Counted from the stretch's first letter, positions 953 through 24,213 are shown. The stretch: DNA of 64,000 nt from Parvularculaceae bacterium (GCA_965263305.1 OZ253666.1:1773511-1837510); one strand, 5' to 3'. Program-made: numbers and translations. The notes: generated by a model not told the origin, from the sequence alone.

Positions 953-2632
953 ATGAAAAACTCTGCGTCACTCTCCGCAAAAGCGGCGTTAAAAATCAAT
1001 AACACGGTGCTGACCACGCTTTATAGTGATGCGCTTCGCGAAGGTGGCGTCGATCTACCGGCGCGAACCCTGGAAAAAGCGATGAACACGCATCCTAATT
1101 TTCCAGGTTTTAAGGCTTTCCACGAATGGGCGTCGGACCACGGATTGAAGTTGCGCGTTTTTCAAGGCAATCCTAGTCAGTTATCGAAATTGGTACCCTG
1201 CCTTGCTTTCTTTCGGGTGAGTGATGGCCGCTTAGAACCCTTGGCGATGATACGGGACACGCGGGACGGTGAGATCCTCCTCGATGACGAACACGGTTTG
1301 CACTGGGAACCGGTCGAAAAAATTCAAGGGTACAATTGCGAGATCTTTGTCAAAGTATCGGCGCCAGAAACACCCTCGACCGACGCGTTGACGAGCGTAA
1401 TACGCGAAAACACGTCTGAAATATGGCGAAAGCGGATGGTGTTGGCTTGCGTTTTCGTCGCTCTTATTATTGCGCTCGCAATGCAGTGGGTGTCCGCACC
1501 CGGATTGTCGGCGCTGGGCCTTTCGGCTCATTTTATTTTGAGTATTGTCGGGATTGGTCTCGCCGTCGAGTTAGTGTCCCTGACGCTTGGGCGTAACGCC
1601 GGACTTGCGCCAAACATTTGTGAAGCAGCAGCTCTGGCGCAATCTGGCTGCGGGAGTGCATTAACGTCGCCGCTATCAAAAATCGTCCCTTGGATCGGAT
1701 TGCCGCTGGCAACGCTCGGCTATTTTTTGGTGATGGCGTTGGCCGTCGGGTTAGGCGCCGGTATCGCAGGCCTACATGGCTGGGTAATGATCATAAGCGC
1801 GGGCGCCATCGTTGCAGGGCTCGGATCACTCTACTACCAAGCCGTCGTTTTAAGAGAATGGTGCCATCTCTGCTGTCTCATGATTGGCGTGATGGCGCTT
1901 CAGGCGGTAGCCGCCCTGCTGTTCGTCTCCTCCATCGTGACCCAATCGACAATGCCAGAGATTGCCGGCGCCATGATACTCGTCTGCTTATTTGCCACGG
2001 TATTCGCAATACTTGTTATCGCTGAACCCTATCTTGAGGGTGCAAGCGAATACGAAAATGTCTATGCGCACTATAAGCAGCTCCTCCAAAAACCACAGAT
2101 TCAAATCGATACTTTCAGAGGGCAAGCATTCGAGTTCGGATCTGTTGATGGTGATATTGTTCTTGGCGACATGAGCGAGGACGCTGCGGAACTGGCGTTG
2201 GTGGTCAGTCTGGGTTGCAATGGATGCGCAATCACCATCGCGGATGTTGAACGTTTGAGACGCCGGTTCTCTGATGGCGTTCGTGTACGGATCCGGTTGG
2301 CGATCGAACAACCAAATGTCTATTTCGATATTGCCGACACAATCGTGACCGCATCCGCTGACGGGCGCCACGAGGACGCGTTTTCAATTCTTCTAGCGGA
2401 AGTGCGTAACCCGACGAAGGTTTCTCGACATACGGCCAGGCGGGCTGACCCGGCGGATTATTCAGAAGCGCTCCGGGCGCAATTGCGTTGGTACAAAGAA
2501 GTGCAACCGCCGACGGTGCCATTAACAACATTCAACGGGTATATTTACCGCGGGCAACTCGCAGACATGCGCTATTTAATCGAAGAAGTCGCCGCAGATA
2601 TATGCGCCACACGGCTCAAAAAATCTGCATAG
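953..2632 (+). CDS. VKOR-family membrane thiol-disulfide oxidoreductase with a C39-like N-terminal domain and a C-terminal thioredoxin-fold CXXC domain
   Basis: The N-terminal segment LKLRVFQGNPSQLSKLVPCLAFF...DDEHGLHW resembles the C-terminal half of the papain-like C39 fold. The central domain has multiple TM helices with a loop Cys pair (NICEAAALAQSGCGS) and a TM-embedded W-CHLC-C (CXXC), which are hallmarks of vitamin K epoxide reductase homologues. The C-terminal soluble domain has VVSLGCNGCAI (Trx-like CXXC). Confidence 0.65.
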   Translation: MKNSASLSAKAALKINNTVLTTLYSDALREGGVDLPARTLEKAMNTHPNFPGFKAFHEWASDHGLKLRVFQGNPSQLSKLVPCLAFFRVSDGRLEPLAMIRDTRDGEILLDDEHGLHWEPVEKIQGYNCEIFVKVSAPETPSTDALTSVIRENTSEIWRKRMVLACVFVALIIALAMQWVSAPGLSALGLSAHFILSIVGIGLAVELVSLTLGRNAGLAPNICEAAALAQSGCGSALTSPLSKIVPWIGLPLATLGYFLVMALAVGLGAGIAGLHGWVMIISAGAIVAGLGSLYYQAVVLREWCHLCCLMIGVMALQAVAALLFVSSIVTQSTMPEIAGAMILVCLFATVFAILVIAEPYLEGASEYENVYAHYKQLLQKPQIQIDTFRGQAFEFGSVDGDIVLGDMSEDAAELALVVSLGCNGCAITIADVERLRRRFSDGVRVRIRLAIEQPNVYFDIADTIVTASADGRHEDAFSILLAEVRNPTKVSRHTARRADPADYSEALRAQLRWYKEVQPPTVPLTTFNGYIYRGQLADMRYLIEEVAADICATRLKKSA

Positions 2633-3037: not shown

Positions 3038-3184
3038 CGAATTACTGCCTATCTCAGCAACCCAGATTCACGGCTCGAGCTCGCGCAGCAAATGGCGGGG
3101 CACGCCGATCCGAAAACGACAAGGATGTATGATCGGCCGTCCGATCAAGTTTCGCTTGATGAGGTTGAGAAAATTGGAATTTAG
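3038..3184 (+). pseudogene. Tyrosine recombinase (phage-type integrase) C-terminal fragment
   Basis: The tail of track ORF 2861..3184 reads ...LAQQMAGHADPKTTRMYDRPSDQVSLDEVEKI, which matches the conserved integrase C-terminus (GH..xxTTxxY with catalytic Tyr). No upstream integrase body is present; the first half of that ORF is an alternative-frame read of the IS3 fragment. Confidence 0.5.
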
Positions 3185-3433
3185 AACGTAAACCGATAGC
3201 GTATGGGGAACTCGACCACTTTATTTGGGTGACAATGACCGAAGACGCCCCGGTCATTGCCCATGTGGTACCTGAAGGACTTCAGCCAGCCGATATTTTT
3301 ATACCGAACAAAATGCGCGCCATTTCAAAGTCGCTTACGAGCAAATTCGCACTTTCATGTGACGGCAGTTACCATTCCAAGCTGAGTACCTGCAAGGGAT
3401 ATGGCTCCCTACTCCAATGATTTTCCTTTCCGC

Positions 3434-4393
3434 CTATTGAGAACGTTTAATCATGCGCTCTAGAAACGCATCAATATCTTGGGCCGTGCGGTCAGGCGCT
3501 TCTTCCATTGGCAGGTGTCCAATACCCTCATATACGACGACATCTGCTTCAGACAAACGCTCGGAAAACGTTTTCGCAGCGGATGGGAAAATTCGTTGAT
3601 CTTCCGCACCCCAGATAACGAGTGTTGGGGCCGGAATATCCCCCAATCGTTCAGCATAGATTGCTTCCCGGTCAACAATGGCGCGTAAGATGGCAGCGCG
3701 CCGATTTCCAGGATACCGCAATAGTTCCCAATACCGATCAATAACGTGCTCGGCCATCACTTCTTTGATGCTCACACTCTGCAGCGCAGAAGCCTCTACG
3801 ATACTACGCTGTATGAAATGTTTTGCCGCAAACCGTCCGACTGGGTTTTGCAAGATTAAAGAGCGGAAACTAAAAGAGGGTATTTTTTCTCCCTCACGCA
3901 GGGGCATGCCCGCAGCATTCAGCAAAAGTAAAGCTTTCACGCGTTCCGGGTTGTCGAGAGCATACCGCCATGACACCCATCCGCCCAAGGAATTACCACC
4001 TAGAACAAACGTAGGTAGATTTAACTCCCGGGTTAGATGATCTAGTGCTTCGGCCATTCCGGAAAAAGAGTAGTCATCTCGCGGATGTGGACCGGTCAAT
4101 CCATGACCGGGCTGGGTGTAGGTTATTATCCGATACTCTTTGCCAAGGCGTTCGACCAGGGGTTCCCATGTATGCAGAGATGCGGCAGCCCCGTGGAGGA
4201 AGACGATGGTTTCTCCATGGGGATTTCCCTGATCACGATAGTGAATACGAAATCCATCATCGGTTTCGAGAAAGCGCGATGCCTCATTCGTATATTTTTC
4301 AACCATCGCATCATGACTTGTGTCTGGCGTGCGGGTCAGGAAAATCGCCAGTACTACAATTAAAAGGCCGGTTAGAAGGGCGTATTTTTTCAT
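3434..4393 (-). CDS. Secreted/membrane-anchored alpha/beta-fold hydrolase
   Basis: Has a GNSLGG nucleophile-elbow motif (GxSxG), HG oxyanion motif (FLHGAAAS) and a C-terminal His (GIGHLP). N-terminal hydrophobic signal/anchor MKKYALLTGLLIVVLAIFL. Start taken at internal Met (aa 23 of track ORF). Confidence 0.75.
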   Translation of the reverse strand: MKKYALLTGLLIVVLAIFLTRTPDTSHDAMVEKYTNEASRFLETDDGFRIHYRDQGNPHGETIVFLHGAAASLHTWEPLVERLGKEYRIITYTQPGHGLTGPHPRDDYSFSGMAEALDHLTRELNLPTFVLGGNSLGGWVSWRYALDNPERVKALLLLNAAGMPLREGEKIPSFSFRSLILQNPVGRFAAKHFIQRSIVEASALQSVSIKEVMAEHVIDRYWELLRYPGNRRAAILRAIVDREAIYAERLGDIPAPTLVIWGAEDQRIFPSAAKTFSERLSEADVVVYEGIGHLPMEEAPDRTAQDIDAFLERMIKRSQ

Positions 4394-4597
4394 GGCAATC
4401 CTATTTATCGAGATCAAAAAACGCCTCAGCCTGCCTTCAAGTTGATGATGAATAGTCAAGTCAAACTCTTCGCGGACGGCGCCATTGAAAATCTAGCATG
4501 TCCCATATGACAACTAAAATTATTTCCGTATACGATGTATGATAAGTATACCAAGAAATCGGCGTATGCGCCTCCCCATCAGGTCAATACCTTTCGT

Positions 4598-5890
4598 CTA
4601 CGAATTAGCTATCAGCAAAGCACAATTCTCTTCAAGTCTCTCTTTAAATGACTTCACCAAGTCATCTGGGATGAGGCTGTTTGCCGCCCCACAAAAAAAA
4701 CGAAGTTCATCATCAGTAACACCGATTCCAAAATACAATTTATGCATGATTGTCACTCTAGGTGTATACTGTTTTAGTACGCCCATTTTCTTAAGGTCTT
4801 TCGGCGTATTAATCTTTCCAAGACATGTAACAACGATGTCCACTTGCTCATCCGCACAATTTCCATCAAATAAAACCTGTTCTGTGTGGCTACTTGTAAA
4901 ATTAATGAAGCCAACGATTTGATCGATTGTTGGTCTTTTTTCTTTTATCTGTGCAGAAATGTCATTCACCACTTCCGACGTGCTACGGCTTATTAGATTT
5001 TTGATGTCTAAACGTACAATATCAGTATAAACACCGATTTGATTGGCTGGCAGCCTCGCAATTTGATGTTGATAGCTATGTGGCAATCCTAAGCGAAGGC
5101 GATCTGAGTTGGTTGCTTGCGCATATGATTTCGCCGCGATTGCTGCATAAAGGGCTATTTGAGAGATCTTTCGCGTCCTGCGATATTTGCTGATCGTGTT
5201 AGCAATGTTCGCACTCAGAATTCCGTCGAGCATATATTGCCCGTCATAGCGTATACTGGGCGAACCTCTTTGGCTAAACTTCAATTGCCGCTGCCATATT
5301 TTAAATTGTAGAGCTGCATACCAACTCTTGATGATGGAAAACGGCGCTTTCCTCCAACGAAGCCCCTGCAATTCATGTACAGCCCGAGCGATGCTGCCTG
5401 GTTGAAATTTTTTATCGGGGTCCAGTAGTAACCGCAGAAAATCGAAGAAGAGAGCGCAACCCGAAAACCCGTCACTGATCACATGGTGTACGGTGAAAAA
5501 AACAACGCTACTCTTTTCACCTCTTAAAACCCTACAAAATACGTATGGGTCATGCTCTCTAACAAAGCGTCTCTTCACTTCATTGTCGAACACTGCGCAT
5601 ATTTCATCTTCACAATGATACTCGCCCACGCAAACCTGGCCTGTAAAGTCCGGTTGCCTCTCAATAAAATGCGGCCCGTGCTGATGTTCTAGCGATACGC
5701 CCATTCCTAAGAGCGGGTATTTCACATATAGCCGGTTTAGCGCGCCTAAAACCCGTTGGCGCGAAATTTCTGTTTGATCGATTGTCGCAGCGAATACACA
5801 ATTCACTGGCGCCTCAAACCCTTGGGCCATCCATTGCTCATGAATTGTCAATGGCCTTTGAAACGTCATATGATTTTCCGCGCCATTCAT
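4598..5890 (-). CDS. HHxxxDG-motif acyltransferase (WS/DGAT wax-ester-synthase-like or free-standing condensation-domain family)
   Basis: FFTVHHVISDGFSG lies at about residue 135 of a 430-aa protein. This matches the WS/DGAT and NRPS C-domain active-site motif HHxxxDG in position and length. No adenylation or PCP partner is encoded nearby. Confidence 0.55.
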   Translation of the reverse strand: MNGAENHMTFQRPLTIHEQWMAQGFEAPVNCVFAATIDQTEISRQRVLGALNRLYVKYPLLGMGVSLEHQHGPHFIERQPDFTGQVCVGEYHCEDEICAVFDNEVKRRFVREHDPYVFCRVLRGEKSSVVFFTVHHVISDGFSGCALFFDFLRLLLDPDKKFQPGSIARAVHELQGLRWRKAPFSIIKSWYAALQFKIWQRQLKFSQRGSPSIRYDGQYMLDGILSANIANTISKYRRTRKISQIALYAAIAAKSYAQATNSDRLRLGLPHSYQHQIARLPANQIGVYTDIVRLDIKNLISRSTSEVVNDISAQIKEKRPTIDQIVGFINFTSSHTEQVLFDGNCADEQVDIVVTCLGKINTPKDLKKMGVLKQYTPRVTIMHKLYFGIGVTDDELRFFCGAANSLIPDDLVKSFKERLEENCALLIANS

Positions 5891-5970
5891 TTGCGACTAC
5901 ATGCTAAATTTATACTTATGTACGAAACGTGAGTTGGATAAGATCCTGGGTGCAAATTTACGGTGCAGCC

Positions 5971-7272
5971 TTACTCTGCGGCTTGCGTTGCTGGCGAAAG
6001 CCCCTTGCCGGCCGCAGCCAACGCCTTGTCTTTATTCGCTGGCGGCAATGTTATACCATAATCACGTAACAAAAAATTTCTTGATATTGGCGGGATGTAA
6101 TGCACCGAACCGAATATAATCTGCCAGCGGATTTTCCAATTCCGATTGTGCTTCAATTCGTAAAAAATCTGAACTATACCAGCAAAGCTATAAGCGCCAG
6201 GGCTCATTAAAACATCTGGTTCATGTGTTAACCCGACCGATGGCCTCTGCATTGGCGGCTCAACATAAGAGCCAAATACTCGATCCCAACACAAAAACGG
6301 GGCGCCGCTGCCAAGGTTTACGGCTTGGTGCTCAAGCTTGCTTGAATGATGCACATAATGATATGGGCCATGCCCTCCCGCCGCCATCATAATAAAGCGC
6401 CAAAAACGGCTTTTCATCACAATTTCATATGTTGACGCAATATGATTGTGAATACTCAAATTGATAGTGATAAGGATGAAAATCGATAATTCTAGGAGTA
6501 AGTACTGCCCAGTGAAGAGTCGAATTACAATCGAACCCACGATCGCTTTAATCGCAAATGTCCAAACACCGCCAAGCGGAAACGCCTGGTTTGCTTCAAA
6601 AACCGTTGCCGTATTTAGTATCGTCGAAATATGATGCGACCGGTGCGCACATAGCCATAATAATCGTGATTTATGGCATAGATAGTGATCTATATAAACA
6701 AATAGTCCTCCCAGAACGTAGGCCACTATGATTGCGAGAAAATATGGTAGTTTGAATAAATGTGGCGTAGACGTAATTAAAGCAACGATGAAGTTCGAAA
6801 ACGCCGTAACACCCTCGATCATCGTTAATCCGTAAAGGGCGGAAATACCCCATATCGATAAACTTAGAGACATCAACCAAAGAAGCAGATTTGATAAATT
6901 AGACAAAATGCAGAATACAACGTATCGGCGATCGTGCAGAACACCAGTCACCCGTTCCTGATCAATGTAAGACCTTGCGGAAGCGTAAGTCATATAGACG
7001 CCGCTAAGAACTGTCAGCGCCACATAAGCATGGATTAACCCGTCCCAACCTCGCGTTTGCATGGCGTCGACGTTGTCCCAAAATATCGGCATCGTGATCC
7101 CACCGAAGAACACCAGTAAGGTTGCAAAAATTGCATATTGTACAGCACACCAAGTATATCCGAAGAAATCGACGACACCGTAGTATTTCTCAGGAATATC
7201 AGGGACCTCATAGAATAGTTTATCAAGGAAGCTGTTATTTTTTCGTCCTACCCCTCCCTCACTCTCTAACAT
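5971..7272 (-). CDS. Membrane fatty-acid hydroxylase / sterol-desaturase superfamily di-iron enzyme
   Basis: Multiple TM helices plus the histidine boxes HKSRLLWLCAHRSHH, HNHIAS and HYVHHS characteristic of the FA_hydroxylase superfamily. Confidence 0.7.
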   Translation of the reverse strand: MLESEGGVGRKNNSFLDKLFYEVPDIPEKYYGVVDFFGYTWCAVQYAIFATLLVFFGGITMPIFWDNVDAMQTRGWDGLIHAYVALTVLSGVYMTYASARSYIDQERVTGVLHDRRYVVFCILSNLSNLLLWLMSLSLSIWGISALYGLTMIEGVTAFSNFIVALITSTPHLFKLPYFLAIIVAYVLGGLFVYIDHYLCHKSRLLWLCAHRSHHISTILNTATVFEANQAFPLGGVWTFAIKAIVGSIVIRLFTGQYLLLELSIFILITINLSIHNHIASTYEIVMKSRFWRFIMMAAGGHGPYHYVHHSSKLEHQAVNLGSGAPFLCWDRVFGSYVEPPMQRPSVGLTHEPDVLMSPGAYSFAGIVQIFYELKHNRNWKIRWQIIFGSVHYIPPISRNFLLRDYGITLPPANKDKALAAAGKGLSPATQAAE

Positions 7273-7287
7273 TTCGTTTCCCCTTTT

Positions 7288-8061
7288 TTAATTGTGGACG
7301 CGCTTTGCGAAATTTCGCATTGAGATGTTGAATGCGACAATTGTCAAAAACATGAGATAGCCGACCACGCCAGAAAATTTGGCAACCGCAATCGTGTTAT
7401 GGAGCGTAAGGTCTCTAATTACGTTCGTAACGAGCGCGCTGGGTAATACAATAACAACAGGCCGCAATAGCTCTGAACCTCCATCAAGAGGGAGAAAGAA
7501 ACCGGAAAACATTGTAGACGGCGCCACCCATAAAAACATAAACAGGGTAATGCCATGCCAACTTTTTATTATCGACACGGCCATAACACCTATTGCGCCA
7601 TAGCAAAGCCCCGCGACCAGTATCAATGTCAGAACTAAACCAAAATGCAGCGTCAGCTCTATTACACCGAGAACGACCATCAAGATCGTGATGATCGCCG
7701 CTACAATAACACCCTTCGTCGCGCTCCATAAAACTTCACCCGCAACAATGTTTCGCAACGAAAGAGACGTAGACAACATTGTCTTCCACGTTTGCGTATG
7801 TTTGAATCGTATAAATGTGACTTGTGAGGCTTCCGCCGACGTCGTAGTGAAAAGAACGAAACTAACAATCCCTGCCGCTAACCAATTGTGGTAGTTGGCG
7901 CCAACCATGCCTTGAAGCAGTTCACCCGCAGTCATCGCAATGGCCAATCCAATACAAACGGGCAACGCCAAGTCTGAGATCAAAGCAGGAACTATCGACG
8001 TTCGCCACACGAGAAAATTGCGCCTAACGACACTCATACTGGGAAATCGGGTGAGGATCAC
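7288..8061 (-). CDS. ABC-2 type exporter permease
   Basis: Six-TM hydrophobic protein with ABC-2 family character. Its start overlaps (ATGA) the stop of the upstream ATPase gene, indicating translational coupling. Confidence 0.7.
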   Translation of the reverse strand: MILTRFPSMSVVRRNFLVWRTSIVPALISDLALPVCIGLAIAMTAGELLQGMVGANYHNWLAAGIVSFVLFTTTSAEASQVTFIRFKHTQTWKTMLSTSLSLRNIVAGEVLWSATKGVIVAAIITILMVVLGVIELTLHFGLVLTLILVAGLCYGAIGVMAVSIIKSWHGITLFMFLWVAPSTMFSGFFLPLDGGSELLRPVVIVLPSALVTNVIRDLTLHNTIAVAKFSGVVGYLMFLTIVAFNISMRNFAKRVHN

Positions 8062-8981
8062 GACGCAATTGCCCTATGAGAATCTGTGTCACCTAGAGAC
8101 ATCATGACATCTTCCAGGGTTGTGTTCCGGTAAGAAAACTTTGCACCCTTGGGCAGGCGCTTGACGATTGACGATGCGTCATCTGTGAAAAAAATCATGG
8201 CTTTACCATTGTCATATCGCCGAATAGCCGGGTCATACAACATCGCGGAAACGGGCTTTTCGACGACAAGCGCGGATTTACCGGTTGTCTGATTAACAAC
8301 ATCTATCGGCGCGCCTTGCTCTAGCACCTTACCGTCTTTGATCAGATAAATGTAGTCGCAAAGCTGCTCTGCTTCTTCCATATAATGAGTAGAAACAATG
8401 ATGGATACGCCGCTATTTTTTAGTCTGATTAACTCTTGCCATACTTTCTTCCGCGATTGGGCGTCTAGCCCGGAACTTGGTTCATCAATGATGAGTAGTT
8501 CAGGTGAACTCATCTGCGCGCGGGCAATGATCAGCCTTCGCTGCATACCGCCTGATAGGGTATCAACGCGATCATGTTCACGAGATAAAAACCCTATCTC
8601 CTCTAACAGAGTCCTTGCTTGTTTTCTCGCAACCCGCGTATTGAAACCAAAATAGGTTCCGAAGACTTCTAAGTTCTGAATGACAGTTAGCTCTTGATCA
8701 AGATTATTATCTTGCGGAACGATACCAAAAATGCGGCGATCGTGATGGGTTAGCGTTCCGATATTTTTCCCATTAATTCGCACCTCCCCTGCATCAGCAT
8801 GCTTCAGTCCAGACAAAATAACCATCGTCGTGGATTTACCCGCGCCATTCGGTCCGAGTAACCCTGTTATCTTTCCCCGAGCGATCTCAACACTGAGGCC
8901 GTCAACCGCGATCGATTGTCCGTATCGTTTTGTGATACCGGTGGCAGATGCGATTGGCAGCGCGCAGTCACTCTCTACCAT
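8058..8981 (-). CDS. ABC transporter ATP-binding protein (ABC-2 exporter partner)
   Basis: Walker A LLGPNGAGKSTT, signature LSGGMQRRL, Walker B LLIIDEPSSGLD, and an H-loop. Confidence 0.85.
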   Translation of the reverse strand: MVESDCALPIASATGITKRYGQSIAVDGLSVEIARGKITGLLGPNGAGKSTTMVILSGLKHADAGEVRINGKNIGTLTHHDRRIFGIVPQDNNLDQELTVIQNLEVFGTYFGFNTRVARKQARTLLEEIGFLSREHDRVDTLSGGMQRRLIIARAQMSSPELLIIDEPSSGLDAQSRKKVWQELIRLKNSGVSIIVSTHYMEEAEQLCDYIYLIKDGKVLEQGAPIDVVNQTTGKSALVVEKPVSAMLYDPAIRRYDNGKAMIFFTDDASSIVKRLPKGAKFSYRNTTLEDVMMSLGDTDSHRAIAS

Positions 8982-10414
8982 GCCGCCTTCCCCCCGATTA
9001 ACCGATCAGGATTTTCCTTGGCAGTCCTTACGATATCGCGATACTGAAAAATAAAGGGAATACCGCGCAGACCACGAAAAATTTCATAACCCTGAATAAC
9101 AGACCTGAGGGTCCAAAAGATGATAAAGAGGAGACTTCTGTTGGAGATTTGAGTCAGCAAATTGGTTCCTGCTAACTGCGCCGCGCCCTCAAGGCCATTT
9201 AACCAACGCTGCATCTGGTCGCGCCCCGAGGTCAAACCGCCAGCTTCGGTGATATCAGCGCTTCTGTTTAAATGAACAACGGAACGGATCGTACAATTCT
9301 TCCGCCCAAAGATATGGGCTGCAATTGAAAATGTAATGTCTTCGACCCTGTTACCAGAGTATTTTGTGAACTCTCTTAATATTGCAACGCCTTCATCATA
9401 TTTCGCGAGCGTCGCGCCGCCTGGTAAGAAATTTAAATTTGCGTGCCCATGCATCAGGGCAGTGCCTGCGACAAGCGGATTAACGCGGGAATCATCCCAG
9501 ACTGGCTCCCCAGAATCATCAAATGGCACCAAAAGATTGCTAGCGCCAACGAAAAATTCTCCACCCCGGGATAACGAAATCATTTCAGATAAACCGCTCG
9601 GTTGTTCTGCGGAAAATTGTGATTTTATCGCTTTGAGGCGTGAAGAGCGGGAGAAAAAATCTTGTAAATTGTCTTTGAGCGTTCTTCGATCAAACTGACG
9701 GGATCGAAGTCGCGTTTCAGCGTCCATTGCTAATAAGTATTGCGGGCGATACCGTCCAACCATGTATTGATCGTATAAAAATTCATAAATATCGCGCAGC
9801 GCACGAACCTTGCCTCTATTTTTTTGATTATCGATATGTTGGTCAATCCAAATTAAATCAATCGACTTAGTATCACCCAGCGCTTGACTATCAATGCATA
9901 TTTCATTGGGTGCGTGTTCTTCGGCGTTAGATTGGTTTGGCGCCGTGTGCCCCCGGAACACACGATCAAATCCAAACTGACCTAGTGAATTTGACAATAA
10001 ACCAGTCGTACCGCCTCCATTGTTGAGGACAACGAACACTTCCCCATTCAGGTTGCATTCTCTCAATTGCGTAACGATTTCAGATAGCGTCGTCGGCAGT
10101 AGCTTGTCGGCGTCGAAAACGGATATCAAAATCGCAATCCGGTCTTTGTCGAAGCCAAATTCACCAATTCGCTGACGATCATTCGCGATACGATCAAGCG
10201 AACAAGCAAATTTTTCGTCCATCTGTGCGATTTGATCCGCAGGGGTCAGTTCACGCCATCGTCGCCAATCCATTCGGACATCACGAACGCACTGTTCCTT
10301 TAGCAAATTTAGATCAGGAACCTTAGTCCAAACGTTTTTCGTTTTGGCAGTGACGCTTGACGTTCGGAAAAAGCGATTACCTCTGTTGGTTCTTTTTTGT
10401 GTGAGCTCTAGCAT
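8975..10414 (-). CDS. Hypothetical protein (479 aa) embedded in the operon; function unknown
   Basis: Long ORF with consistent codon usage and tightly packed with its neighbours (7-nt overlap downstream, 6-nt gap upstream). I recognise no clear motif; a glycosyltransferase-like fold cannot be excluded. Confidence 0.5.
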   Translation of the reverse strand: MLELTQKRTNRGNRFFRTSSVTAKTKNVWTKVPDLNLLKEQCVRDVRMDWRRWRELTPADQIAQMDEKFACSLDRIANDRQRIGEFGFDKDRIAILISVFDADKLLPTTLSEIVTQLRECNLNGEVFVVLNNGGGTTGLLSNSLGQFGFDRVFRGHTAPNQSNAEEHAPNEICIDSQALGDTKSIDLIWIDQHIDNQKNRGKVRALRDIYEFLYDQYMVGRYRPQYLLAMDAETRLRSRQFDRRTLKDNLQDFFSRSSRLKAIKSQFSAEQPSGLSEMISLSRGGEFFVGASNLLVPFDDSGEPVWDDSRVNPLVAGTALMHGHANLNFLPGGATLAKYDEGVAILREFTKYSGNRVEDITFSIAAHIFGRKNCTIRSVVHLNRSADITEAGGLTSGRDQMQRWLNGLEGAAQLAGTNLLTQISNRSLLFIIFWTLRSVIQGYEIFRGLRGIPFIFQYRDIVRTAKENPDRLIGGKAAW

Positions 10415-10420
10415 TTGACA

Positions 10421-12826
10421 TCATCCTTGGGCGCTCATGCCAGCAACAACACGCTCGCTATCTTCCCTAACGAAAGGCTTCCTCTTGTTTGGCCCATTGC
10501 GAGCCAAACGTTCGTGTGCATTTGTAAATGACCCTGATGCGATTGACGCTGTAATAGAAATTTCTCCGCACAAACATAAAGCGCAGACTATTTCAGCCAG
10601 AGCAGCGGCGGTATTTGGACCTTCGCCAAGTCCCAATAATGAGAGGGCGGCTTTCTGGCTGGGCAATCCCGTGCCCCCCCCAACTGTCCCAACAATAATT
10701 CCTGGCATTGCTAAGGTATATCGAACACCTTGGTCCGTCCGCACTATTCTACCATTTCCGACAGCAGACTCTGCAACGCATGCAACATCTTGTCCGGTCG
10801 CCAGATATAATGCCGCTAAACCATTCGCCAGCTGAGCTTGTACACCGAATTGACCGCTAATTGAGGAGCCTAATTGGGCGACCTCGTGGTAGCGTATGAG
10901 TGTATCCGGACAAACGCCGAGCAATTTGTGACATACGTCATTTGGTATTGTCACCGATGCACAAACCGATCGCCCGCGCCCCTTCATGACGCCAGCGTAA
11001 CTTGCCTTCTTGTCACCAGACAATCCGCCGTCAATAAACCACTCCGATATTTTCAATGTCGAAATGTTGGCGATGTATCGGCACATTGCATCGGTTGCAA
11101 TGGTCGCCATGTTCTGGCCCGCCGCGTTCCCCGTCGTATAGCGGACAATTAGGTAGACAATCTCACCCTGGCGCAGGCAATCCAGCTTATTCACAACGCC
11201 AAAACGCGTGGTCTTTTGAGCAACACTTTTGAGGACATCTTTGCTCTTTTCGACCCATTCAACGAATTCTGTCGCAGCATTGAAATCTTGAAATAAAAAC
11301 GCCGGACAGCGCAGTACCCCATCATCGATTGTAGCAATCTCAACCCCGCCAGCTTTTCGGGCAGCCATGGCGCCGCGCGCATAGGATGCCACTAACGCTG
11401 CTTCGGTTGTTGCTAATGGCGTATAAAATTCTCCGATAGCATGATCACCTCGTACGGGAATAGGGCCGACTAGCCCCATTGGCACTTTCACGGTGCCAAT
11501 GTATTTCTCAATGTTCCCCGCATAGGCGCCGGCTTGATCAACGCTGTCCCCATCTGCGATGAGATCGTGGACACCGTCTTGGATATTAATGACATTGCCG
11601 AGTTTTTTCCATCGACGAAGCGTTGAATTTGAATGAAAGCTAGATGCTGGCTGGGAAGGCGCAGTTTTAAGATCTTTGTCAACACGAACCAGCCGTAGCG
11701 AACTACCATCGCTCCGTGCACTGCGCGCGCCAACAGAAAATGCTGTATTGTTAATAACATCCTGATTGAGAGTTGCTCTCTCATCGACAGACAGCGCCTT
11801 GGCAAAATATAATACTGTCTCGGCAAGTCCCGCTGATAGAGGGACGGTCGGTCGCCAGTTTAACAACTGGGTGGCGAGTCCAATATCTGGCTTCCTGATT
11901 TTTGGATCATCGCTCGGAGCTTCCTTAAACGAAATAGAAGTTTCCGTTGTAACAAAATCCTTCACCAGACCCGCAAGTTCCGCTATCGTAAATTCGTCTT
12001 GGTTGCCCAGATTGACCGGTCTAGCATTAACTTGGTTCACGGCCATTAACCGCAGCAGACCTTCGACTAAATCACTGACAAAGCAGAATGATCTCGTTTG
12101 CTTGCCGTTTCCATAGATCGTCAGCGGCGCCCCTTGCAAGGCCTGTACGATGAAATTCGAAACCACTCTTCCATCATCCGGCCGCATTCTGGGCCCGTAT
12201 GTATTGAAAATGCGAGCAACGCGAATATCGACGTCATGTTCTCGGTGATAATCAAAAAACAACGATTCCGCAGCGCGTTTTCCTTCATCATAACACGATC
12301 GAATTCCATTTGGATTCACGTTTCCGTTGTATGACTCGGTTTGCGGATGGTGATCTGCATGGGGATCGCCGTAAACCTCAGATGTCGACGCCTGTAGTAT
12401 GCGCGCTCCGGTTTTCTTTGCTTGTTCCAGTAAGTTCATGGACCCAATCACGCAGGTGCGCATTGTACGAATGGGATCTAACTGATAGAGGGGTGGAGAC
12501 GCCGGGCAAGCGAGGTTAAAAATAAAGTCCACATCGAACGTTTCGGACGTTTCGATATCCGCCTCGACGAAAGAGAAATTAGTATGATCCAGAACCGGTT
12601 GTATATTGATCAAAGAGCCAGTTTGGAGATTGTCTAAGCATGTAACGTCTGCTCCAAGCCCAAGCAGCCGGTCACATAGATGGGATCCCAAAAATCCTGC
12701 GCCGCCGCATACAAGCACTGATTTGTTTTTAAACGTTTTTTCCGCCCTTGCGCACCACTCCTCATGAAGAGCAATCGTTCCTTCGTCGCGAAGCATTACA
12801 ACAATCCCCGTTTCCCGTAAAAACAA
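10421..12826 (-). CDS. Fusion protein: N-terminal UDP-glucuronate decarboxylase/NAD-dependent epimerase-dehydratase-like SDR plus C-terminal class I HMG-CoA reductase-like catalytic domain
   Basis: N-terminus: Rossmann motif VCGGAGFLGSHL and a YxxxK region matching the UXS/extended-SDR fold. C-terminus: HMGR hallmarks VKVPMGLVGPIPV, TTEAALVAS, NAAGQNMATIATDAM (DAMGMNM-like) and GTVGGGT. Confidence 0.75.
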   Translation of the reverse strand: MFLRETGIVVMLRDEGTIALHEEWCARAEKTFKNKSVLVCGGAGFLGSHLCDRLLGLGADVTCLDNLQTGSLINIQPVLDHTNFSFVEADIETSETFDVDFIFNLACPASPPLYQLDPIRTMRTCVIGSMNLLEQAKKTGARILQASTSEVYGDPHADHHPQTESYNGNVNPNGIRSCYDEGKRAAESLFFDYHREHDVDIRVARIFNTYGPRMRPDDGRVVSNFIVQALQGAPLTIYGNGKQTRSFCFVSDLVEGLLRLMAVNQVNARPVNLGNQDEFTIAELAGLVKDFVTTETSISFKEAPSDDPKIRKPDIGLATQLLNWRPTVPLSAGLAETVLYFAKALSVDERATLNQDVINNTAFSVGARSARSDGSSLRLVRVDKDLKTAPSQPASSFHSNSTLRRWKKLGNVINIQDGVHDLIADGDSVDQAGAYAGNIEKYIGTVKVPMGLVGPIPVRGDHAIGEFYTPLATTEAALVASYARGAMAARKAGGVEIATIDDGVLRCPAFLFQDFNAATEFVEWVEKSKDVLKSVAQKTTRFGVVNKLDCLRQGEIVYLIVRYTTGNAAGQNMATIATDAMCRYIANISTLKISEWFIDGGLSGDKKASYAGVMKGRGRSVCASVTIPNDVCHKLLGVCPDTLIRYHEVAQLGSSISGQFGVQAQLANGLAALYLATGQDVACVAESAVGNGRIVRTDQGVRYTLAMPGIIVGTVGGGTGLPSQKAALSLLGLGEGPNTAAALAEIVCALCLCGEISITASIASGSFTNAHERLARNGPNKRKPFVREDSERVVAGMSAQG

Positions 12827-13030
12827 ACAAGCGCCAACCCGATAGTTATAATTCGCGGCTTAATACCATCATTATACCGATGCATAATCAGTCAGCATTT
12901 AATTCGATATCGAAATGTTTTGACACCGACGAATTTGTGATTGATTTACACAAAAATTTTACCTGCGCAATACCGCTTCCGAAAATACCACCCATGATTG
13001 TATTCATATAAAAAGAAACGCATAGAGATC

Positions 13031-13098
13031 ATTAAGAAACTTAACCAAAAAACGCATTTTGATTAAGAATCTTAACGTCCATCATTAAGATTCTTAAC
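13031..13098. promoter_or_regulatory. Three palindromic TTAAG-N3-CTTAA sites (TTAAGAAACTTAA, TTAAGAATCTTAA, TTAAGATTCTTAA) in the AT-rich region upstream of the leftward 7-gene operon; candidate operator array
   Basis: Read directly from the sequence: three perfect 13-bp palindromes within 70 bp, about 200-270 bp upstream of the operon's first gene start at 12826. Confidence 0.4.
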
Positions 13099-13801
13099 TT
13101 GGATCGCTATAAAGAGTAATCTGGCTCCCGCACCCATCGACCGATCTGGATATTTCGCGACGTGGGAAAAATATTTTCCTGACGAAAAAATGCGATAATC
13201 AGATATTTTTTTATTCGAAACGAATAAGCGGTTGAGCAAGATCGAGCCATATCTTTAGGCGAGGCCTCGCGGACTTCACGCATGGCTAAGCGCCATGCGC
13301 AATGTTTGAGTGCCCGCCTGTATCAAAAAGGGCGCACATAAAGCCTCTGTAAGGAAACCGGTCGCTCACGATCCTGACGGACTCTTTGTCTTATGTGATG
13401 ATGGCGTGACGGGGGCGTTGACCCAGATGCGAAAGGGCAATGAAACCGTCCGGCGACGGGATGGTTCCTGCTTATGAGTAATACAATCTCGGCCAGCGCA
13501 TCTCTGCGCCCATGGTGGCGAGCCGTCTACAGACGATTTACCGCTATGATCAGTTCAACTGGTTGAATGAAGCCTGCCATGACGTGCAATTCGGCGTGGG
13601 CTATGATCGGTAGTTAACCGTTAACAGCATCCGGCAGGTCAAATCGTCCGATAGACAAGAATTATAAACGATATTTGCATTGTTTGATTTCAGAAAAACT
13701 GATGTCGCTTTTTATGCGGGTGATAAATATTTATTTTGTGAGGATTGAGCGTGGCTTGCCCAATCGAAGTGGTCCAACCAATTTATTAGAGTTGGCGTTA
13801 C

Positions 13802-14005
13802 ATGCAGCGGCGCTTATGTCGCCTCCATATTATAAGGCGGCTTGAACGACGCCTGCAAGATGAATTCAGGCATCGGCGTTGGTTCTCGCCCGCCCTCTAT
13901 CGCAAACGCAATGCCGTCGAACGCTCTTTCTGCCGACTGAAAGACTTCAGACGCACCGCAACCCGTTACGACAGGCTCGCTCGGAACTTCCTCGCGGCCG
14001 TATAG
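13802..14005 (+). pseudogene. IS5-family (IS427/IS1031-like) transposase C-terminal fragment
   Basis: RNAVERSFCRLKDFRRTATRYDRLARNFLAAV is the characteristic C-terminal tail of IS5-family DDE transposases. No upstream body is present. Confidence 0.55.
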
Positions 14006-14312
14006 CTCACGCCGATGAGTCCCGAACCTAAGAGGCGCGCTCGTCACGTCCGGCTAGGACGGTCGAAACCGGTTCAAGATCAGCTCAGCCAATGACGCCC
14101 AATATGATACGGCGGGCCGTCTTGACGGGATGGAGGGGAACCCGAATTGGCTTCCGCTGTGTGACGGCTCCAGCCAGATCGGCGTTCTATCGGAGGCAAT
14201 CTCATGGTCACATAGAACGTGGCTGCGCCATTGGGGTTTCGTCACTACAGCAAAAATGAGGGGTTTCGAACACCAGAATTATCTTTGCCTTTCAAGGTTC
14301 TAGATAATTTTT

Positions 14313-15032
14313 GGGGCTGTCCCAGAAGATTTAGTTTCTTGAGTATGGTTTGAGCCATTCTCGGAGTGTTTTCAAGAGCTGATCGGCGGCTCCATAATTG
14401 AAGCGCCACTCACATTCCTTGAGATAAAGATGGAAGTTTTGCTTGGGGATACCATTGTATTTCCTGAGGTGCCGCTTTGCCTGGTTCCAGAAGTTTTCGA
14501 TGCCGTTTATGTGGTTTTGCCTATCAGCGAAAAGCTGTGAATGGTTGATCCGCATATGGTGAAAATCAGTGATGTCGAGCGTGTCGTAAGATCGATAACT
14601 GTCGGTGTAAACAATGCTGTCAGGCTGTACTTTGCAAGCAATAATAGGGATTAACGTGTCAGCCTTGGTATCGCTGACAGCGACGGTGAACACGCGTCCT
14701 CCGCGTTTCAGCAGTCCAAAGACAGGTATCTTTCCAGCTGCGCCGCGTCCACGCTTACCCTTCCGAACACCGCCGAAATAGCTTTCATCAACTTCTACTT
14801 CGCCAGCCAACTCGGAGGCTTCTTCGATCAGCTTTTCCGCAATAACAATCCGCAAGCGATGATAGAAAGTGGCTGCTGTGTCCTTATTCACACCGACAAG
14901 CAAACAAGCCGTTCTGGCTGGCGTACCCGCAACGAAGTGTTCGAGCAGCTTATTCGTCTGATTATGCGTTAGTTTTGAATGCTTTAGCCGCATCCCGCCA
15001 TCCTAGATGTTTCAAACATCTGGGACAGCCCC
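14313..15032 (-). mobile_element. Intact IS1595-family insertion sequence (IS1016-like, about 720 bp) with imperfect about 20-bp terminal inverted repeats (GGGGCTGTCCCAGA...) and an 8-bp target-site duplication TAATTTTT
   Basis: IRL GGGGCTGTCCCAGAAG at 14313 and IRR (reverse complement) ...TCTGGGACAGCCCC ending at 15032. The flanking direct repeat is ..TAATTTTT|IS|TAATTTTT... The single internal ORF is a transposase. Confidence 0.7.
14331..14993 (-). CDS. IS1595-family (ISXO2/IS1016-like) DDE transposase
   Basis: 220-aa ORF filling the IS, with an N-terminal HTH-like region and a DDE-type core (…VYTDSYRSYD…, …NHINGIENFWNQAKRHL…). Confidence 0.75.
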   Translation of the reverse strand: MRLKHSKLTHNQTNKLLEHFVAGTPARTACLLVGVNKDTAATFYHRLRIVIAEKLIEEASELAGEVEVDESYFGGVRKGKRGRGAAGKIPVFGLLKRGGRVFTVAVSDTKADTLIPIIACKVQPDSIVYTDSYRSYDTLDITDFHHMRINHSQLFADRQNHINGIENFWNQAKRHLRKYNGIPKQNFHLYLKECEWRFNYGAADQLLKTLREWLKPYSRN

Positions 15033-15060
15033 TAATTTTTTTTTGCCCCTGAAAGTCGTA

Positions 15061-15136
15061 TGGTGCCGCATGGGTGACTTGAACACCCGACCCCATCATT
15101 ACGAATGATGTGCTCTACCAGCTGAGCTAATGCGGC
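15061..15136 (-). tRNA. tRNA-Thr (anticodon CGT), CCA encoded
   Basis: The reverse complement reads GCCGCATTAGCTCAGCTGGTAGAGCACATCATTCGTAATGATGGGGTCGGGTGTTCAAGTCACCCATGCGGCACCA. This gives a 7-bp acceptor stem, D-arm GCTC/GAGC, anticodon stem CATCA/TGATG with loop TTCGTAA (CGT), and T-arm GGGTG/CACCC with TTCAAGT. Confidence 0.8.
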
Positions 15137-21816: not shown

Positions 21817-24213
21817 TTATAAATCTCGCGCGACGCGAAAGCCCGTGGCGAAGTCCCTGGCTTTGGCGGCGGCGGCGCGGCGATATCCTGCGCGGGCCCG
21901 CCAAGCGCCAGCGTTCCAGGCGCCTCCCTTTATGACGCGCGCCTCGCAATCATCTTGGGCGATGCTGCTGTCAACGGGACGTCCGTCCAATGGCGCGCCT
22001 TCATGGGTGGGTCGCCAGCAATCAGCGGTCCATTCCCAAACATTACCGTGTACGTCGTAAAGGCCAAAAGCATTGGGGGCGAAACTGCCGGTATTCGCCG
22101 TGCGGCGGCGATAGCGACCGGGCGCCGTCCCATAGGGGTATTCGCCGTGATAGTTCGCTTGGGCGGCGGTGATGGTGTCGCCGGTGTTAAACGGGGTTTG
22201 GGCGCCTGCCCTTGCGGCGAATTCCCACTCTGATTCACTGGGCAGACGATATCGCCGCCCGGTGCGTGACGACAGCCAGGCGATGTAGTCGAGCGCGTCT
22301 TCATAGGAGACATTGATGACCGGCTTGCGCCCGCGGCCCCAGCCAGCGTCGCGCGGCCGGTAGCGCCGACAGCCGCCGGCTGCGACGCAAGCGTCCCATT
22401 CATCGAAGGTCACTTCTCTCGCGCCAAGGGCAAAGGGACGCCGCAGTGTCACCGTCACCTGAGGGCCCTCCTCCGGCGTGCGCGCCGCCTCGTTGATGGG
22501 CGCGCCCATGACAAAAGCGCCAGCGGGCAATTCGGCCATGTCGGGGCATTCCAGACAATCGCGGAAATATAGCCCCGCCGTCGCTTCAGTGTCTTCGATG
22601 AGGGAGGCGATGTCTCGTTGTTCGGAGGGGACAGCGTCAGATGACGATCCCTCATTGGCCGGGGCGCCGGCGGTTGAAGAAAGGGCGTCCCTGGTTGGCG
22701 CCTCCGAGATTGACGACCAGGCGAGTTGCGCAATCACGTCGGCGTTGCCGGGCGGCGCATCCTGTTGCGAATCATTGATCGCTTTTGGCGGCGCGGCCGG
22801 CTTTAGGGTTGGTTCAACGTCGAAGGCGGCAAGACGGTTTTCTTTGGTGAGTGGCGCTGGGGCGAGCGGCGCCGGTGTTTCTTCGACTGCGTCGTATAAA
22901 GATGATTCTTCAGCCGGTGGTGTCGCCTCGAGCGGCGTCAATTCAGACCAGACGGTCTCATTCGTTGCGACCGCTTCTCCTGAGGGAGGCAAGTTCGCTG
23001 TTTCGCTGGTCGTCGGTGCGGATGTCGCCAGCGTTGTCATTGTCTCTGGCGCTTCGCTCTTTCCTTGCGCGCTTGAGAATTGCTCAACAGACAATGGAGA
23101 TTTTTCCTCAAGGCGAGGTGAGGTTTCGCGTAGCGTTGGGGGCTCGTTTTTCTTAGGGCTCGCCGCGGTCGCTGGTTCGACAAAGGCGACCACGGGCGGG
23201 GGATCGATAAAACGAGGGAGATCGCTTGGCGTTGAGGCCATGATCGACGCCGCATCATCCCGTTGGCCGGAATCGGCCGACGGTGATGACCCTACGTTAC
23301 CCATAAAAAGACCCGCAGCACCGATCGCCAAAAGCAGTGAAGCAGCAGCGCCGGCAATTATCCGGATGGTCGATGTGCGAAACGCAGGCGTGTTTTGCGG
23401 CGTCGGTTCTTCGTGAATCGCGAGTGAAGGTCTCGACGCGATTAGAGGGGAGTACGCGCTCTCCCTTTCTTCATGGTAAGGATCTTTTTCAAAGATATCT
23501 GCATCGACGCGGGCGCCGGTTGATCTATCATCAGGGCTAAAGCCGTCAGCGTCATGGCGTGACTGAAAAAGGGCGCCGTGATCCTCCGCCATCCAGACCC
23601 CCGCTTTCGATTGACCATCCGCGGGTGTCACGGCGCGGTGATGTCGGTCGCCACGAAGTGCGCCGGGGTCGGCTTTGGCTGGTGGCGTCCAATCAAAAGG
23701 ATGGCGTTGCGACGGTGTCGCGGAGGGAGACGCGAGGGACGGCGGCGTTGCATCCGCGCTGCTCTTCGCAAGGGTGTCGTTTGTTATAGCGTTCTGCGGG
23801 TCGAGGTTTTGCGCTTGAGCGCGTTTGGCGGCGATTTTAATGTCTTCCAACATGAACCGCCAACGCGGATCCGCCTCGGCGCCGCTCCATCCAACGAGGT
23901 CAACCGGCGCCAGACTGGCGAACGCCTTTGGCGGTGCTGTCCGTTTAAACGTCACGGGGCAAAGTAATCTATCCTGTAACGCTTGCTCAGCCGCGGCGAG
24001 CAAGTCCGCATCTTGCAGGCTTTCTGGCGACCAAATCACCACCGTAGCGATGGGGGCTTGGCGAGCGGGCTTTTGGGAAGCGTCGCTATGGTCATCAGCG
24101 CCGCTAAACAAGACAGAGTAACCGAGAACCTGAAGAGCCCTCGCGATTTGTTCTCCCAATAGGGCGCTGTCGGCGCAAAAGAGAAGACGTACAGGTGATG
24201 AAGTATCTATCAT
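21817..24213 (-). CDS. Multidomain protein: N-terminal TIR-like domain, long Ala/Pro/Ser/Thr-rich linker with one TM helix, C-terminal FGE-sulfatase (SUMF1/formylglycine-generating-enzyme-like) domain
   Basis: N-terminus …RLLFCADSALLGEQIARALQVLGYSVLF…ATVVIWSPESLQDADLL…E… is a TIR/DUF1863-like pattern. TM helix IRIIAGAAASLLLAIGAAGLFMG. C-terminus …VSYEDALDYIAWLS…YRLPSESEWEFAARAG…YDVHGNVWEWTADCW…RVIKGGAW… is canonical FGE-sulfatase. Confidence 0.65.
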   Translation of the reverse strand: MIDTSSPVRLLFCADSALLGEQIARALQVLGYSVLFSGADDHSDASQKPARQAPIATVVIWSPESLQDADLLAAAEQALQDRLLCPVTFKRTAPPKAFASLAPVDLVGWSGAEADPRWRFMLEDIKIAAKRAQAQNLDPQNAITNDTLAKSSADATPPSLASPSATPSQRHPFDWTPPAKADPGALRGDRHHRAVTPADGQSKAGVWMAEDHGALFQSRHDADGFSPDDRSTGARVDADIFEKDPYHEERESAYSPLIASRPSLAIHEEPTPQNTPAFRTSTIRIIAGAAASLLLAIGAAGLFMGNVGSSPSADSGQRDDAASIMASTPSDLPRFIDPPPVVAFVEPATAASPKKNEPPTLRETSPRLEEKSPLSVEQFSSAQGKSEAPETMTTLATSAPTTSETANLPPSGEAVATNETVWSELTPLEATPPAEESSLYDAVEETPAPLAPAPLTKENRLAAFDVEPTLKPAAPPKAINDSQQDAPPGNADVIAQLAWSSISEAPTRDALSSTAGAPANEGSSSDAVPSEQRDIASLIEDTEATAGLYFRDCLECPDMAELPAGAFVMGAPINEAARTPEEGPQVTVTLRRPFALGAREVTFDEWDACVAAGGCRRYRPRDAGWGRGRKPVINVSYEDALDYIAWLSSRTGRRYRLPSESEWEFAARAGAQTPFNTGDTITAAQANYHGEYPYGTAPGRYRRRTANTGSFAPNAFGLYDVHGNVWEWTADCWRPTHEGAPLDGRPVDSSIAQDDCEARVIKGGAWNAGAWRARAGYRRAAAAKARDFATGFRVARDL

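Follow-up and report, generated by a model that had tools for sequence, protein, structure and literature searches.

A seven-gene operon headed by a UDP-xylose synthase fused to an HMG-CoA reductase-like domain in a Parvularculaceae bacterium: a candidate pathway for an exported, acylated glycoconjugate

A stretch of 64,000 nucleotides from a Parvularculaceae bacterium (GCA_965263305.1, OZ253666.1:1773511-1837510; hereafter the window) includes seven co-oriented open reading frames (ORFs) on its minus strand at positions 3434-12826. The first gene encodes a UDP-xylose synthase (UXS) domain fused to a domain related to 3-hydroxy-3-methylglutaryl-CoA (HMG-CoA) reductase (HMGR), and it is followed by genes for a predicted glycosyltransferase of the GT2 fold, an ABC-2 exporter (ATPase and permease), a membrane di-iron enzyme, a stand-alone condensation-superfamily enzyme and an α/β-fold hydrolase. 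With about even chances, in our estimate, the operon makes and exports a xylose-containing acylated small glycoconjugate, i.e. a glycoside, a glycolipid or a (short) lipo-oligosaccharide. Since the N-terminal domain of the fusion protein has all the marks of a bona fide UXS and the product of the second gene looks like a GT2-fold transferase, glycosylation would be central rather than optional, and sugar chemistry most likely lies at the centre of the pathway rather than the synthesis of a simple wax ester. The original prediction for this DNA, a modified lipid or ester that is made and exported, stands in its general idea of an acylated export product; its treatment of glycosylation as a mere possibility does not, as the UXS and GT2 assignments make that step central.

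The fusion gene occupies 10421-12796 and encodes 791 aa from the ATG at 12796 used in the public annotation (the ORF extends to a TTG at 12826, giving 801 aa). It is separated by 6 nt (10415-10420) from the gene for a 479-aa protein (8975-10414), which in turn overlaps the ATPase gene (8058-8981, 307 aa) by 7 nt (ATGGTAG, 8975-8981). The ATPase and permease genes (the latter at 7288-8061, 257 aa) overlap by 4 nt, the GTG start of the permease gene lying on the ATPase stop, and a gap of 15 nt (7273-7287) precedes the gene for the di-iron enzyme (5971-7272, 433 aa). Thus, the first five genes, with overlaps or gaps of at most 15 nt, are translationally coupled or nearly so. Both overlaps had been described as ATGA couplings; the overlaps are as predicted, but the sequence at 8058-8061 is GTGA. 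The genes for the condensation-like enzyme (4598-5830, annotated as 410 aa; ORF to 5890, 430 aa) and the hydrolase (3434-4393, annotated as 319 aa; ORF to 4459, 341 aa) follow gaps of 80-140 and 138-204 nt, respectively, depending on the start codon chosen. Scans for promoters and terminators returned counts at chance level.

The GC content of the cluster is 47.1%, with 0.43-0.52 at third codon positions (GC3), versus 56.0% GC over 15061-64000 and GC3 of 0.57-0.69 in the comparison set of pheS, pheT and two other window genes. The low GC content is therefore real, as are the position and the common orientation of the seven ORFs that the original prediction had listed. When the domain check that it had proposed was run with Pfam and NCBIfam, most of its calls proved right: the UXS-like short-chain dehydrogenase/reductase (SDR) fused to an HMGR-like domain, the ABC-2 ATPase and permease, the membrane di-iron hydroxylase/desaturase-family enzyme and the secreted α/β hydrolase. 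Two calls changed, those for the 479-aa protein and for a protein with an HHxxxDG motif.

The fusion protein is composed of the UXS domain (aa 24-336 of the 791-aa form; 11789-12727, minus strand), a linker of roughly 80 aa and a class-I HMGR-like domain (aa 418-766; 10499-11545, minus strand). Both domains were found by Pfam, as Epimerase/GDP_Man_Dehyd and HMG-CoA_red in one intact ORF, and by PDB searches, and the exact 791-aa product is present in the public protein collection. The UXS domain matches human UXS1 (2b69) with 350 bits and about 57% identity over 313 aa, and is 58-62% identical to Sinorhizobium and other rhizobial UDP-glucuronic acid decarboxylases. It includes the extended SDR motifs GGAGFLGSH (GxxGxxG), ASTSEVYGDP and YDEGKR, the last of which provides the YxxxK of the catalytic triad. 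On this similarity the N-terminal domain is assigned with high confidence as a UDP-glucuronate decarboxylase (UDP-xylose synthase), which differs from human UXS1 and Sinorhizobium Uxs1 in its fusion to an HMGR-like domain.

The HMGR-like domain matches PF00368 with an E-value of 3e-91 and the archaeal class-I HMGR 6hr7 with 226 bits. An alignment with human HMGR shows the catalytic E559, K691, D767 and H866 to be conserved, together with the substrate contacts R590, D690, K692 and N755, while S684, K735 and H752 are replaced by T, R and Q, respectively. The domain thus has the catalytic and HMG-binding residues that define class I enzymes, and its score against the HMGR equivalog model TIGR00533 is 258.7 bits, below the cut-off of 441.8. 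Neither an HMG-CoA synthase nor a mevalonate kinase was found when the cluster proteins were scanned with Pfam and NCBIfam. Because the HMG-binding residues are kept, a short HMG-like substrate is expected rather than a fatty acyl-CoA, and the domain would act as a four-electron thioester/alcohol oxidoreductase on a small, HMG-like polar substrate, not as a fatty acyl-CoA reductase (FAR).

The nearest relatives of the HMGR-like domain are stand-alone proteins of about 420 aa, 49-56% identical and numbering in the thousands, and all named ones come from Alphaproteobacteria (Rhodobacteraceae, Devosia, Sphingorhabdus and Hyphomicrobium). The window domain and this clade have in common the substitutions TTEAALVAS, DAAGQN and GRGR and an upstream W..L motif, which is kept in the linker of the fusion protein. 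The stand-alone proteins differ in being unfused and in having another, conserved neighbourhood. In the three loci examined (L010 10001-19401, L011 10001-19277 and L012 10001-19344), the HMGR-like gene heads a conserved seven-gene operon and is followed by genes for a UbiA prenyltransferase, a PPDK_N/PEP-utilizers phosphotransferase, a DUF3419 protein, two proteins without Pfam matches and an AMP-binding enzyme. A published description of this HMGR-like/UbiA/DUF3419 operon was not found in the literature searched; the operon looks like a pathway in which a CoA thioester is reduced, phosphorylated and transferred.

The HMGR-like domain could be thought to work in the oxidative direction, standing in as a non-homologous substitute for UDP-glucose 6-dehydrogenase (UGDH): by a four-electron oxidation of the C6 alcohol of a sugar it would pass UDP-glucuronate straight to the UXS domain, so that the fusion protein alone would convert UDP-glucose to UDP-xylose. 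Its fusion partner consumes UDP-glucuronate, the cluster includes no ugd gene, HMGR and UGDH both perform four-electron alcohol/acid chemistry via a thiohemiacetal, and degradative HMGRs are oxidative. However, the related stand-alone proteins sit with UbiA, dikinase-like and AMP-binding ligase genes and not with sugar genes, the residues contacting HMG are kept, and oxidation of the HMGR type would yield a CoA thioester, whereas UXS needs the free acid. Such a role is very improbable. The fusion of the two domains suggests that an alcohol from the HMGR-like domain and UDP-xylose from the UXS domain serve one product, most simply as acceptor and donor for the transferase encoded by the next gene.

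The 479-aa product of that gene, called an unknown protein in the original prediction, has no Pfam or NCBIfam match. A search of 5.8 billion clustered proteins found 14 homologues. In the alignment of the 14-member family, NNGGG, DAETR, ED and Q..RW are invariant, which is the motif set of GT2 β-glycan synthases (D, DxD, (T)ED and QxxRW on a GT-A fold). An AF2 model built from the family alignment (pLDDT 76, pTM 0.81) gave as best Foldseek matches hyaluronan synthases (HAS; E 6e-9), Chs1, PcManGT and GtrB, and the cellulose synthases BcsA and CesA as well as K4CP are likewise among the best structural matches. Four of the 14 family members match Glyco_tranf_2_3 weakly (best E 0.0022), and hhalign against one GT2_3 protein gave no match. 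No transmembrane (TM) segment was predicted in the 479-aa protein (Kyte-Doolittle threshold 1.6, 19-residue window) and the model has only C-terminal amphipathic helices; hence the channel of multiple TM helices typical of processive GT2 synthases is missing. Judged by motifs and modelled fold, the protein is a putative glycosyltransferase of a new and very divergent GT2-like family, soluble or peripheral, so that the gene of the original prediction stands and its label of unknown does not.

The homologues are 27-36% identical, and their neighbourhoods differ from the window cluster. Their neighbours are other glycosyltransferases, namely GT87, GT28/EryCIII-like, GT2_3, WecA-like and PMT_2. 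The closest homologue (36% identity; locus L002, 1-11299) lies at the end of a polyketide synthase (PKS) cluster with ketosynthase (KS), enoylreductase (ER), acyl carrier protein (ACP) and thioesterase (TE) domains. That cluster also encodes a carbamoyltransferase, a methyltransferase, an ABC exporter and a GT28/EryCIII-like glycosyltransferase, and its product is probably a doubly glycosylated polyketide of an uncultured organism.

The structural resemblance of the 479-aa protein to the processive synthases BcsA, HAS, CesA, Chs1 and K4CP, together with the invariant QxxRW, ED and DxD-type motifs of its family, would also fit a locus for a surface poly- or oligosaccharide, i.e. a small capsule or exopolysaccharide island in which a processive synthase builds a xylose- or uronic acid-containing glycan that is exported by the ABC-2 system and decorated by the acyltransferase and the hydrolase. 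UXS would supply the activated sugar, and ABC-2 systems are known to export capsules, teichoic acids and O-antigens. We consider this unlikely. The transferase has no counterpart of the transmembrane channel of BcsA, HAS and Chs, and the Pfam and NCBIfam scans of the cluster found no carbohydrate-binding module of the Wzm/Wzt type, no enzyme priming polyprenyl phosphate, and no outer-membrane export or chain-length protein. The transporter scores best with NodI/DrrA and not with capsule or O-antigen models, and neither the di-iron lipid hydroxylase nor the HMGR-like domain would have a role.

The Arn pathway, which adds 4-amino-4-deoxy-L-arabinose to lipid A, also differs from the window operon. 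The SDR domain scores 350 bits with UXS versus about 84 with ArnA, the cluster is without ArnB, a formyltransferase, ArnD, ArnT and ArnEF, and the transferase differs from ArnC in having QxxRW, a motif missing from polyprenyl-phosphate GT2 enzymes.

The sixth gene encodes the protein with the HHxxxDG motif, which is intact (VHHVISDG). Its sole Pfam match is to Condensation, with 23.9 bits against a gathering cut-off of 30.6 and over the N-terminal 115 residues only. A word-indexed search of 5.8e9 proteins found only the protein itself, and phmmer, run exhaustively on 1.84 billion representatives, gave 165 matches, all of which are condensation (C) domains of nonribosomal peptide synthetases (NRPS) or stand-alone proteins of 400-480 aa. 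Condensation and PapA_C were found in nine of ten stand-alone relatives scanned, four of which also match AATase; the window protein is 15-20% identical to this stand-alone family. A profile made from the window protein and 20 stand-alone relatives matched 8s6l in the PDB with an E-value of 2e-76, NRPS C domains with 1e-33 and weaker, PapA5 (1q9j) with 9e-17, and the wax ester synthase/diacylglycerol acyltransferase (WS/DGAT) structure 6chj with only 0.0047 (18.8 bits). Foldseek with an AF2 model (pLDDT 82.6) likewise placed 8s6l first (TM-score 0.76), followed by NRPS E, Cy and C domains, with 6chj outside the top 50, and no match to the WS/DGAT Pfam families (WES_acyltransf/DUF1298) was obtained at E≤0.01. 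The two-lobed, CAT-like condensation fold of the model and the HHxxxDG motif indicate a very divergent stand-alone condensation/PapA5-like enzyme, for which a role as an O- or N-acyltransferase is plausible.

These assignments bear directly on the pathway of the original prediction, in which a fatty alcohol, made from fatty acyl-CoA by the HMGR-like domain, is esterified by the HHxxxDG protein as wax-ester synthase; the hydroxylase would modify the chain, and the lipid would be exported by the ABC-2 system. Like the known wax-ester pathway of a FAR and a WS/DGAT, the operon would combine a thioester-to-alcohol reductase with an HHxxxDG acyltransferase. Four-electron reduction of a thioester to an alcohol is indeed the chemistry of HMGR-family enzymes, the HHxxxDG motif is complete, the stand-alone relatives match the alcohol O-acyltransferase families AATase and PapA_C, and an enzyme of the FA_hydroxylase family is present. 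Nevertheless, this pathway is quite unlikely. The HHxxxDG protein belongs by profile and fold with condensation/PapA5-like enzymes and not with WS/DGAT, so that this call is withdrawn. The fatty alcohol fares no better: the contacts to the carboxylate and 3-hydroxyl of HMG are kept (R590, K692 and N755, with the conservative changes K735→R and S684→T), which points to a small polar substrate, and the clade of the domain sits with UbiA, dikinase-like and acyl-CoA-ligase-like enzymes. Bacterial FARs belong to another family, the NAD_binding_4 SDRs, and the sole match of this kind, with 20.3 bits, falls within the UXS domain. Finally, a wax-ester pathway offers no explanation for the UXS domain or the GT2-like enzyme.

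The third and fourth genes encode an ABC-2 exporter of the NodIJ/DrrAB type. The ATPase matches PF00005 and scores 237 bits with the NodI model NF010060 (cut-off 521) and 223.6 bits with the drrA model TIGR01188 (cut-off 312). The permease matches PF01061 and PF12698 and, over aa 9-255, the nodJ model TIGR01291 with 100.7 bits (cut-off 206.65), and five hydrophobic segments were found in its hydropathy profile. As in NodIJ and DrrAB, an ATPase and a separate permease of the six-TM type are encoded by translationally coupled genes, and the scores do not reach the NodI and NodJ equivalog cut-offs.

The product of the fifth gene matches PF04116 with 35.1 bits versus a cut-off of 31 and has six hydrophobic segments. 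Its three histidine boxes (HYLCH196, HRSHH210 and HGPYHYVHH301-309) give an intact eight-histidine motif, as expected of a membrane enzyme of the FA_hydroxylase/sterol-desaturase superfamily. Only remote relatives were found, 24-31% identical and annotated as sterol desaturase family, and a genome scan of species representatives, evidently without the source genome among them, gave no relative, only one marginal match of 54 residues. The last gene encodes a hydrolase with an Abhydrolase_1 domain (E 7e-28), the nucleophile elbow GNSLGG and, by hydropathy, one hydrophobic anchor or signal at the N-terminus, MKKYALLTGLLIVVLAIFL. From the positive-inside rule, the catalytic domain is expected on the periplasmic side. 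The 319-aa form of the hydrolase is present in the public protein collection.

A pathway can be proposed from these assignments. The N-terminal domain of the fusion protein, with its strong homology to characterised enzymes, would convert UDP-glucuronate to UDP-xylose, and the HMGR-like domain would reduce a CoA thioester to a primary alcohol in a four-electron reaction with NAD(P)H. The substrate of the latter is probably an HMG-CoA-like short hydroxy-acyl-CoA, and the product would be a mevalonate-like diol serving as aglycone or building block. The transferase, whose fold and motifs are those of GT2 enzymes, would then move a sugar, possibly repeatedly, onto an acceptor; donor and acceptor are presumed to be the products of the two fused domains. 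The condensation/PapA5-like enzyme may O- or N-acylate the intermediate, and the membrane di-iron enzyme may hydroxylate or desaturate its lipid part. As members of its family do, the NodIJ/DrrAB-like transporter would carry the product over the inner membrane, where the membrane-anchored hydrolase may trim or transfer it on the periplasmic side.

Several points weigh against this xylose glycoconjugate pathway. The product and every step of the proposed route are predictions from the genes, and the HMGR-like clade has no assigned role even in its usual stand-alone context. The closest solved relative of the condensation-like enzyme, 8s6l, bears the title of a dehydratase, which makes acyl transfer less than certain, and the cluster is without an acyl-carrier, ligase or lipid-synthesis gene to supply the acyl donor. 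Because of the larger gaps ahead of them, the last two genes may have their own promoters or be independent of the operon. Comparative support for a functional linkage of the seven genes is lacking, and the ratio of nonsynonymous to synonymous substitutions (dN/dS) between the window and the only other copy of the cluster is uninformative, with 0-16 differences per gene.

Among known systems, Nod-factor synthesis (NodC, NodA/NodB and NodIJ) resembles the window operon in that a QxxRW-type GT2 enzyme is encoded in one operon with an acyltransferase and an ABC-2 exporter of the NodI/NodJ family. In addition, the closest homologue of the 479-aa protein adjoins genes for a carbamoyltransferase and a methyltransferase, kinds of enzyme that also decorate Nod factors. 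The parts differ, however. None of the seven proteins matches NodA, NodB or polysaccharide deacetylase, the place of the acyltransferase being taken by the condensation/PapA5-like enzyme. The transferase, unlike NodC, has no TM helices and no significant sequence match to NodC or chitin synthase, the transporter scores far under the NodIJ equivalog cut-offs, and the operon supplies UDP-xylose, not UDP-GlcNAc. A new class of exported signal or surface molecule, analogous to Nod factors and assembled from non-homologous parts, i.e. a short xylose oligosaccharide or glycoside made by a new channel-less GT2-like synthase, primed on or attached to a mevalonate-like diol from the HMGR-like domain, acylated by the PapA5-like enzyme and secreted by the NodIJ-like transporter, is a long shot. 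If this were true, the UXS-HMGR fusion would mark the first recruitment of an HMGR-family enzyme to the synthesis of a glycoconjugate instead of an isoprenoid.

In the mycobacterial phthiocerol dimycocerosate (PDIM) locus, which includes PapA5, DrrABC and the Pps/Mas PKSs, a stand-alone condensation-fold acyltransferase of the PapA5 type is also found together with an exporter like DrrAB. There, PapA5 esterifies a 1,3-diol, and reduction of a 3-hydroxyacyl-CoA by an HMGR-type enzyme would likewise give a 1,3-diol. The window cluster differs in having no PKS, carrier protein, MmpL or DrrC, and its sugar enzymes have no counterpart in the PDIM locus.

All seven genes were found in one further sequence, the metagenome contig L014 from ENA (62 kb), which comes from a near-identical sister strain and carries them at the same chromosomal position. 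The genes are 98.8-100% identical in nucleotide sequence, and every ORF is intact and equal in length. The fusion ORF, intact and of equal length in this independent contig, is thus real and not an assembly artefact, and at least two strains have kept the cluster.

The seven-gene combination was found in no further genome or contig. The original prediction had itself named a lack of co-conservation elsewhere as speaking against it, and no second genome beyond the sister strain came to light; this makes the cluster unique, not unreal. A second UXS-HMGR fusion was not found among 1808 plasmid records, none of which spans both halves of the protein, nor among 80 metagenome UXS loci or the best 120 matches to the HMGR domain. 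The 80 loci, obtained by scanning metagenomes with the whole fusion protein, were UXS-only, and local tblastn detected no adjacent gene for an HMGR, glycosyltransferase, hydroxylase or condensation-like protein. The absence of other fusions is weak evidence because the word-indexed search with the HMGR domain missed the window's own 791-aa fusion protein, although this is in the collection; long multidomain proteins are possibly under-sampled. The literature searched had nothing on UXS-HMGR fusions or on export of xylose glycolipids by NodIJ-type transporters.

The cluster is horizontally acquired and lies in a typical tRNA-adjacent genomic island with remnants of insertion sequences (IS). Upstream of the operon are an IS5-like transposase fragment (13802-14005) and a complete IS1595 element (14295-15050) with 37-nt inverted repeats and a transposase of 220 aa. 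Next to the latter is tRNA-Thr(CGT) (15061-15136, minus strand), beyond which the core genes for a PilZ protein, pheT and pheS are found. No att-like direct repeat of the 3' end of tRNA-Thr was found, so that the far edge of the island could not be placed. The IS1595 element is missing from L014, which shows an empty site (about 6100-6140 of that contig) and has, downstream of the hydrolase gene and before a gene for a VKOR-domain protein, an IS3 (rve) insertion of its own. Insertion sequences have therefore been active around the island recently. A defence-system reading of the cluster was rejected, as PADLOC gave only generic ABC-ATPase matches.

Given the IS1595, IS5 and IS3 elements, the insertion polymorphism between the two strains, the lack of synteny elsewhere and the larger gaps ahead of the last two genes, the seven genes might be mosaic island cargo, brought together by serial horizontal insertions without forming a single pathway, or a decaying cluster. 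This is decidedly unlikely, since the start and stop codons of the first five genes overlap or nearly abut, the low GC and GC3 are uniform over all seven genes, and the ORFs are intact with their catalytic motifs in two strains.

Each enzyme of the operon comes from a known superfamily, and as a biosynthetic operon the system is of a familiar type. New are the UXS-HMGR fusion, the GT2-like family that Pfam does not detect, the orphan condensation-fold enzyme and the whole combination. If the operon is functional, its product is a compound foreseen by none of the current pathway models, and it gives a handle on three poorly understood groups: the HMGR-like clade, the 14-member GT2-like family and the orphan condensation-fold enzyme. 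The HMGR-like clade is large and occurs in organisms without a recognisable mevalonate pathway around such proteins, and the fusion is a testable clue to its role. As the cluster is confined to one organism, practical value will be modest until the product is found.

Upstream of the fusion gene, at a distance of 235-300 bp, a 15-bp palindrome, ATTAAGAWTCTTAAC, occurs three times (13031-13045, 13062-13076 and 13084-13098). Strand-matches to this sequence number 9 in the window versus 1.47 expected, a count reached in none of 100 shuffles, and L014 has the three copies as well. They probably act as operators; a regulator gene was not found within the cluster. A degenerate fourth copy (547-561) falls within an arm of the 25-nt inverted repeat (543-567 and 3173-3197) that flanks the VKOR-domain gene on both sides. 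This gene (953-2632, plus strand) is convergent with the operon and kept in L014, and its product of 559 aa has a VKOR (vitamin K epoxide reductase) domain (residues 194-321) between long regions that match no family. Elsewhere in the window, a minus-strand gene at 21817-24213 encodes a 798-aa protein whose C-terminal domain is of the FGE-sulfatase (formylglycine-generating enzyme-like) type and whose long N-terminal region belongs to no listed family; the ORF overlaps, on the same strand, that of a peptidase S58 upstream of it.

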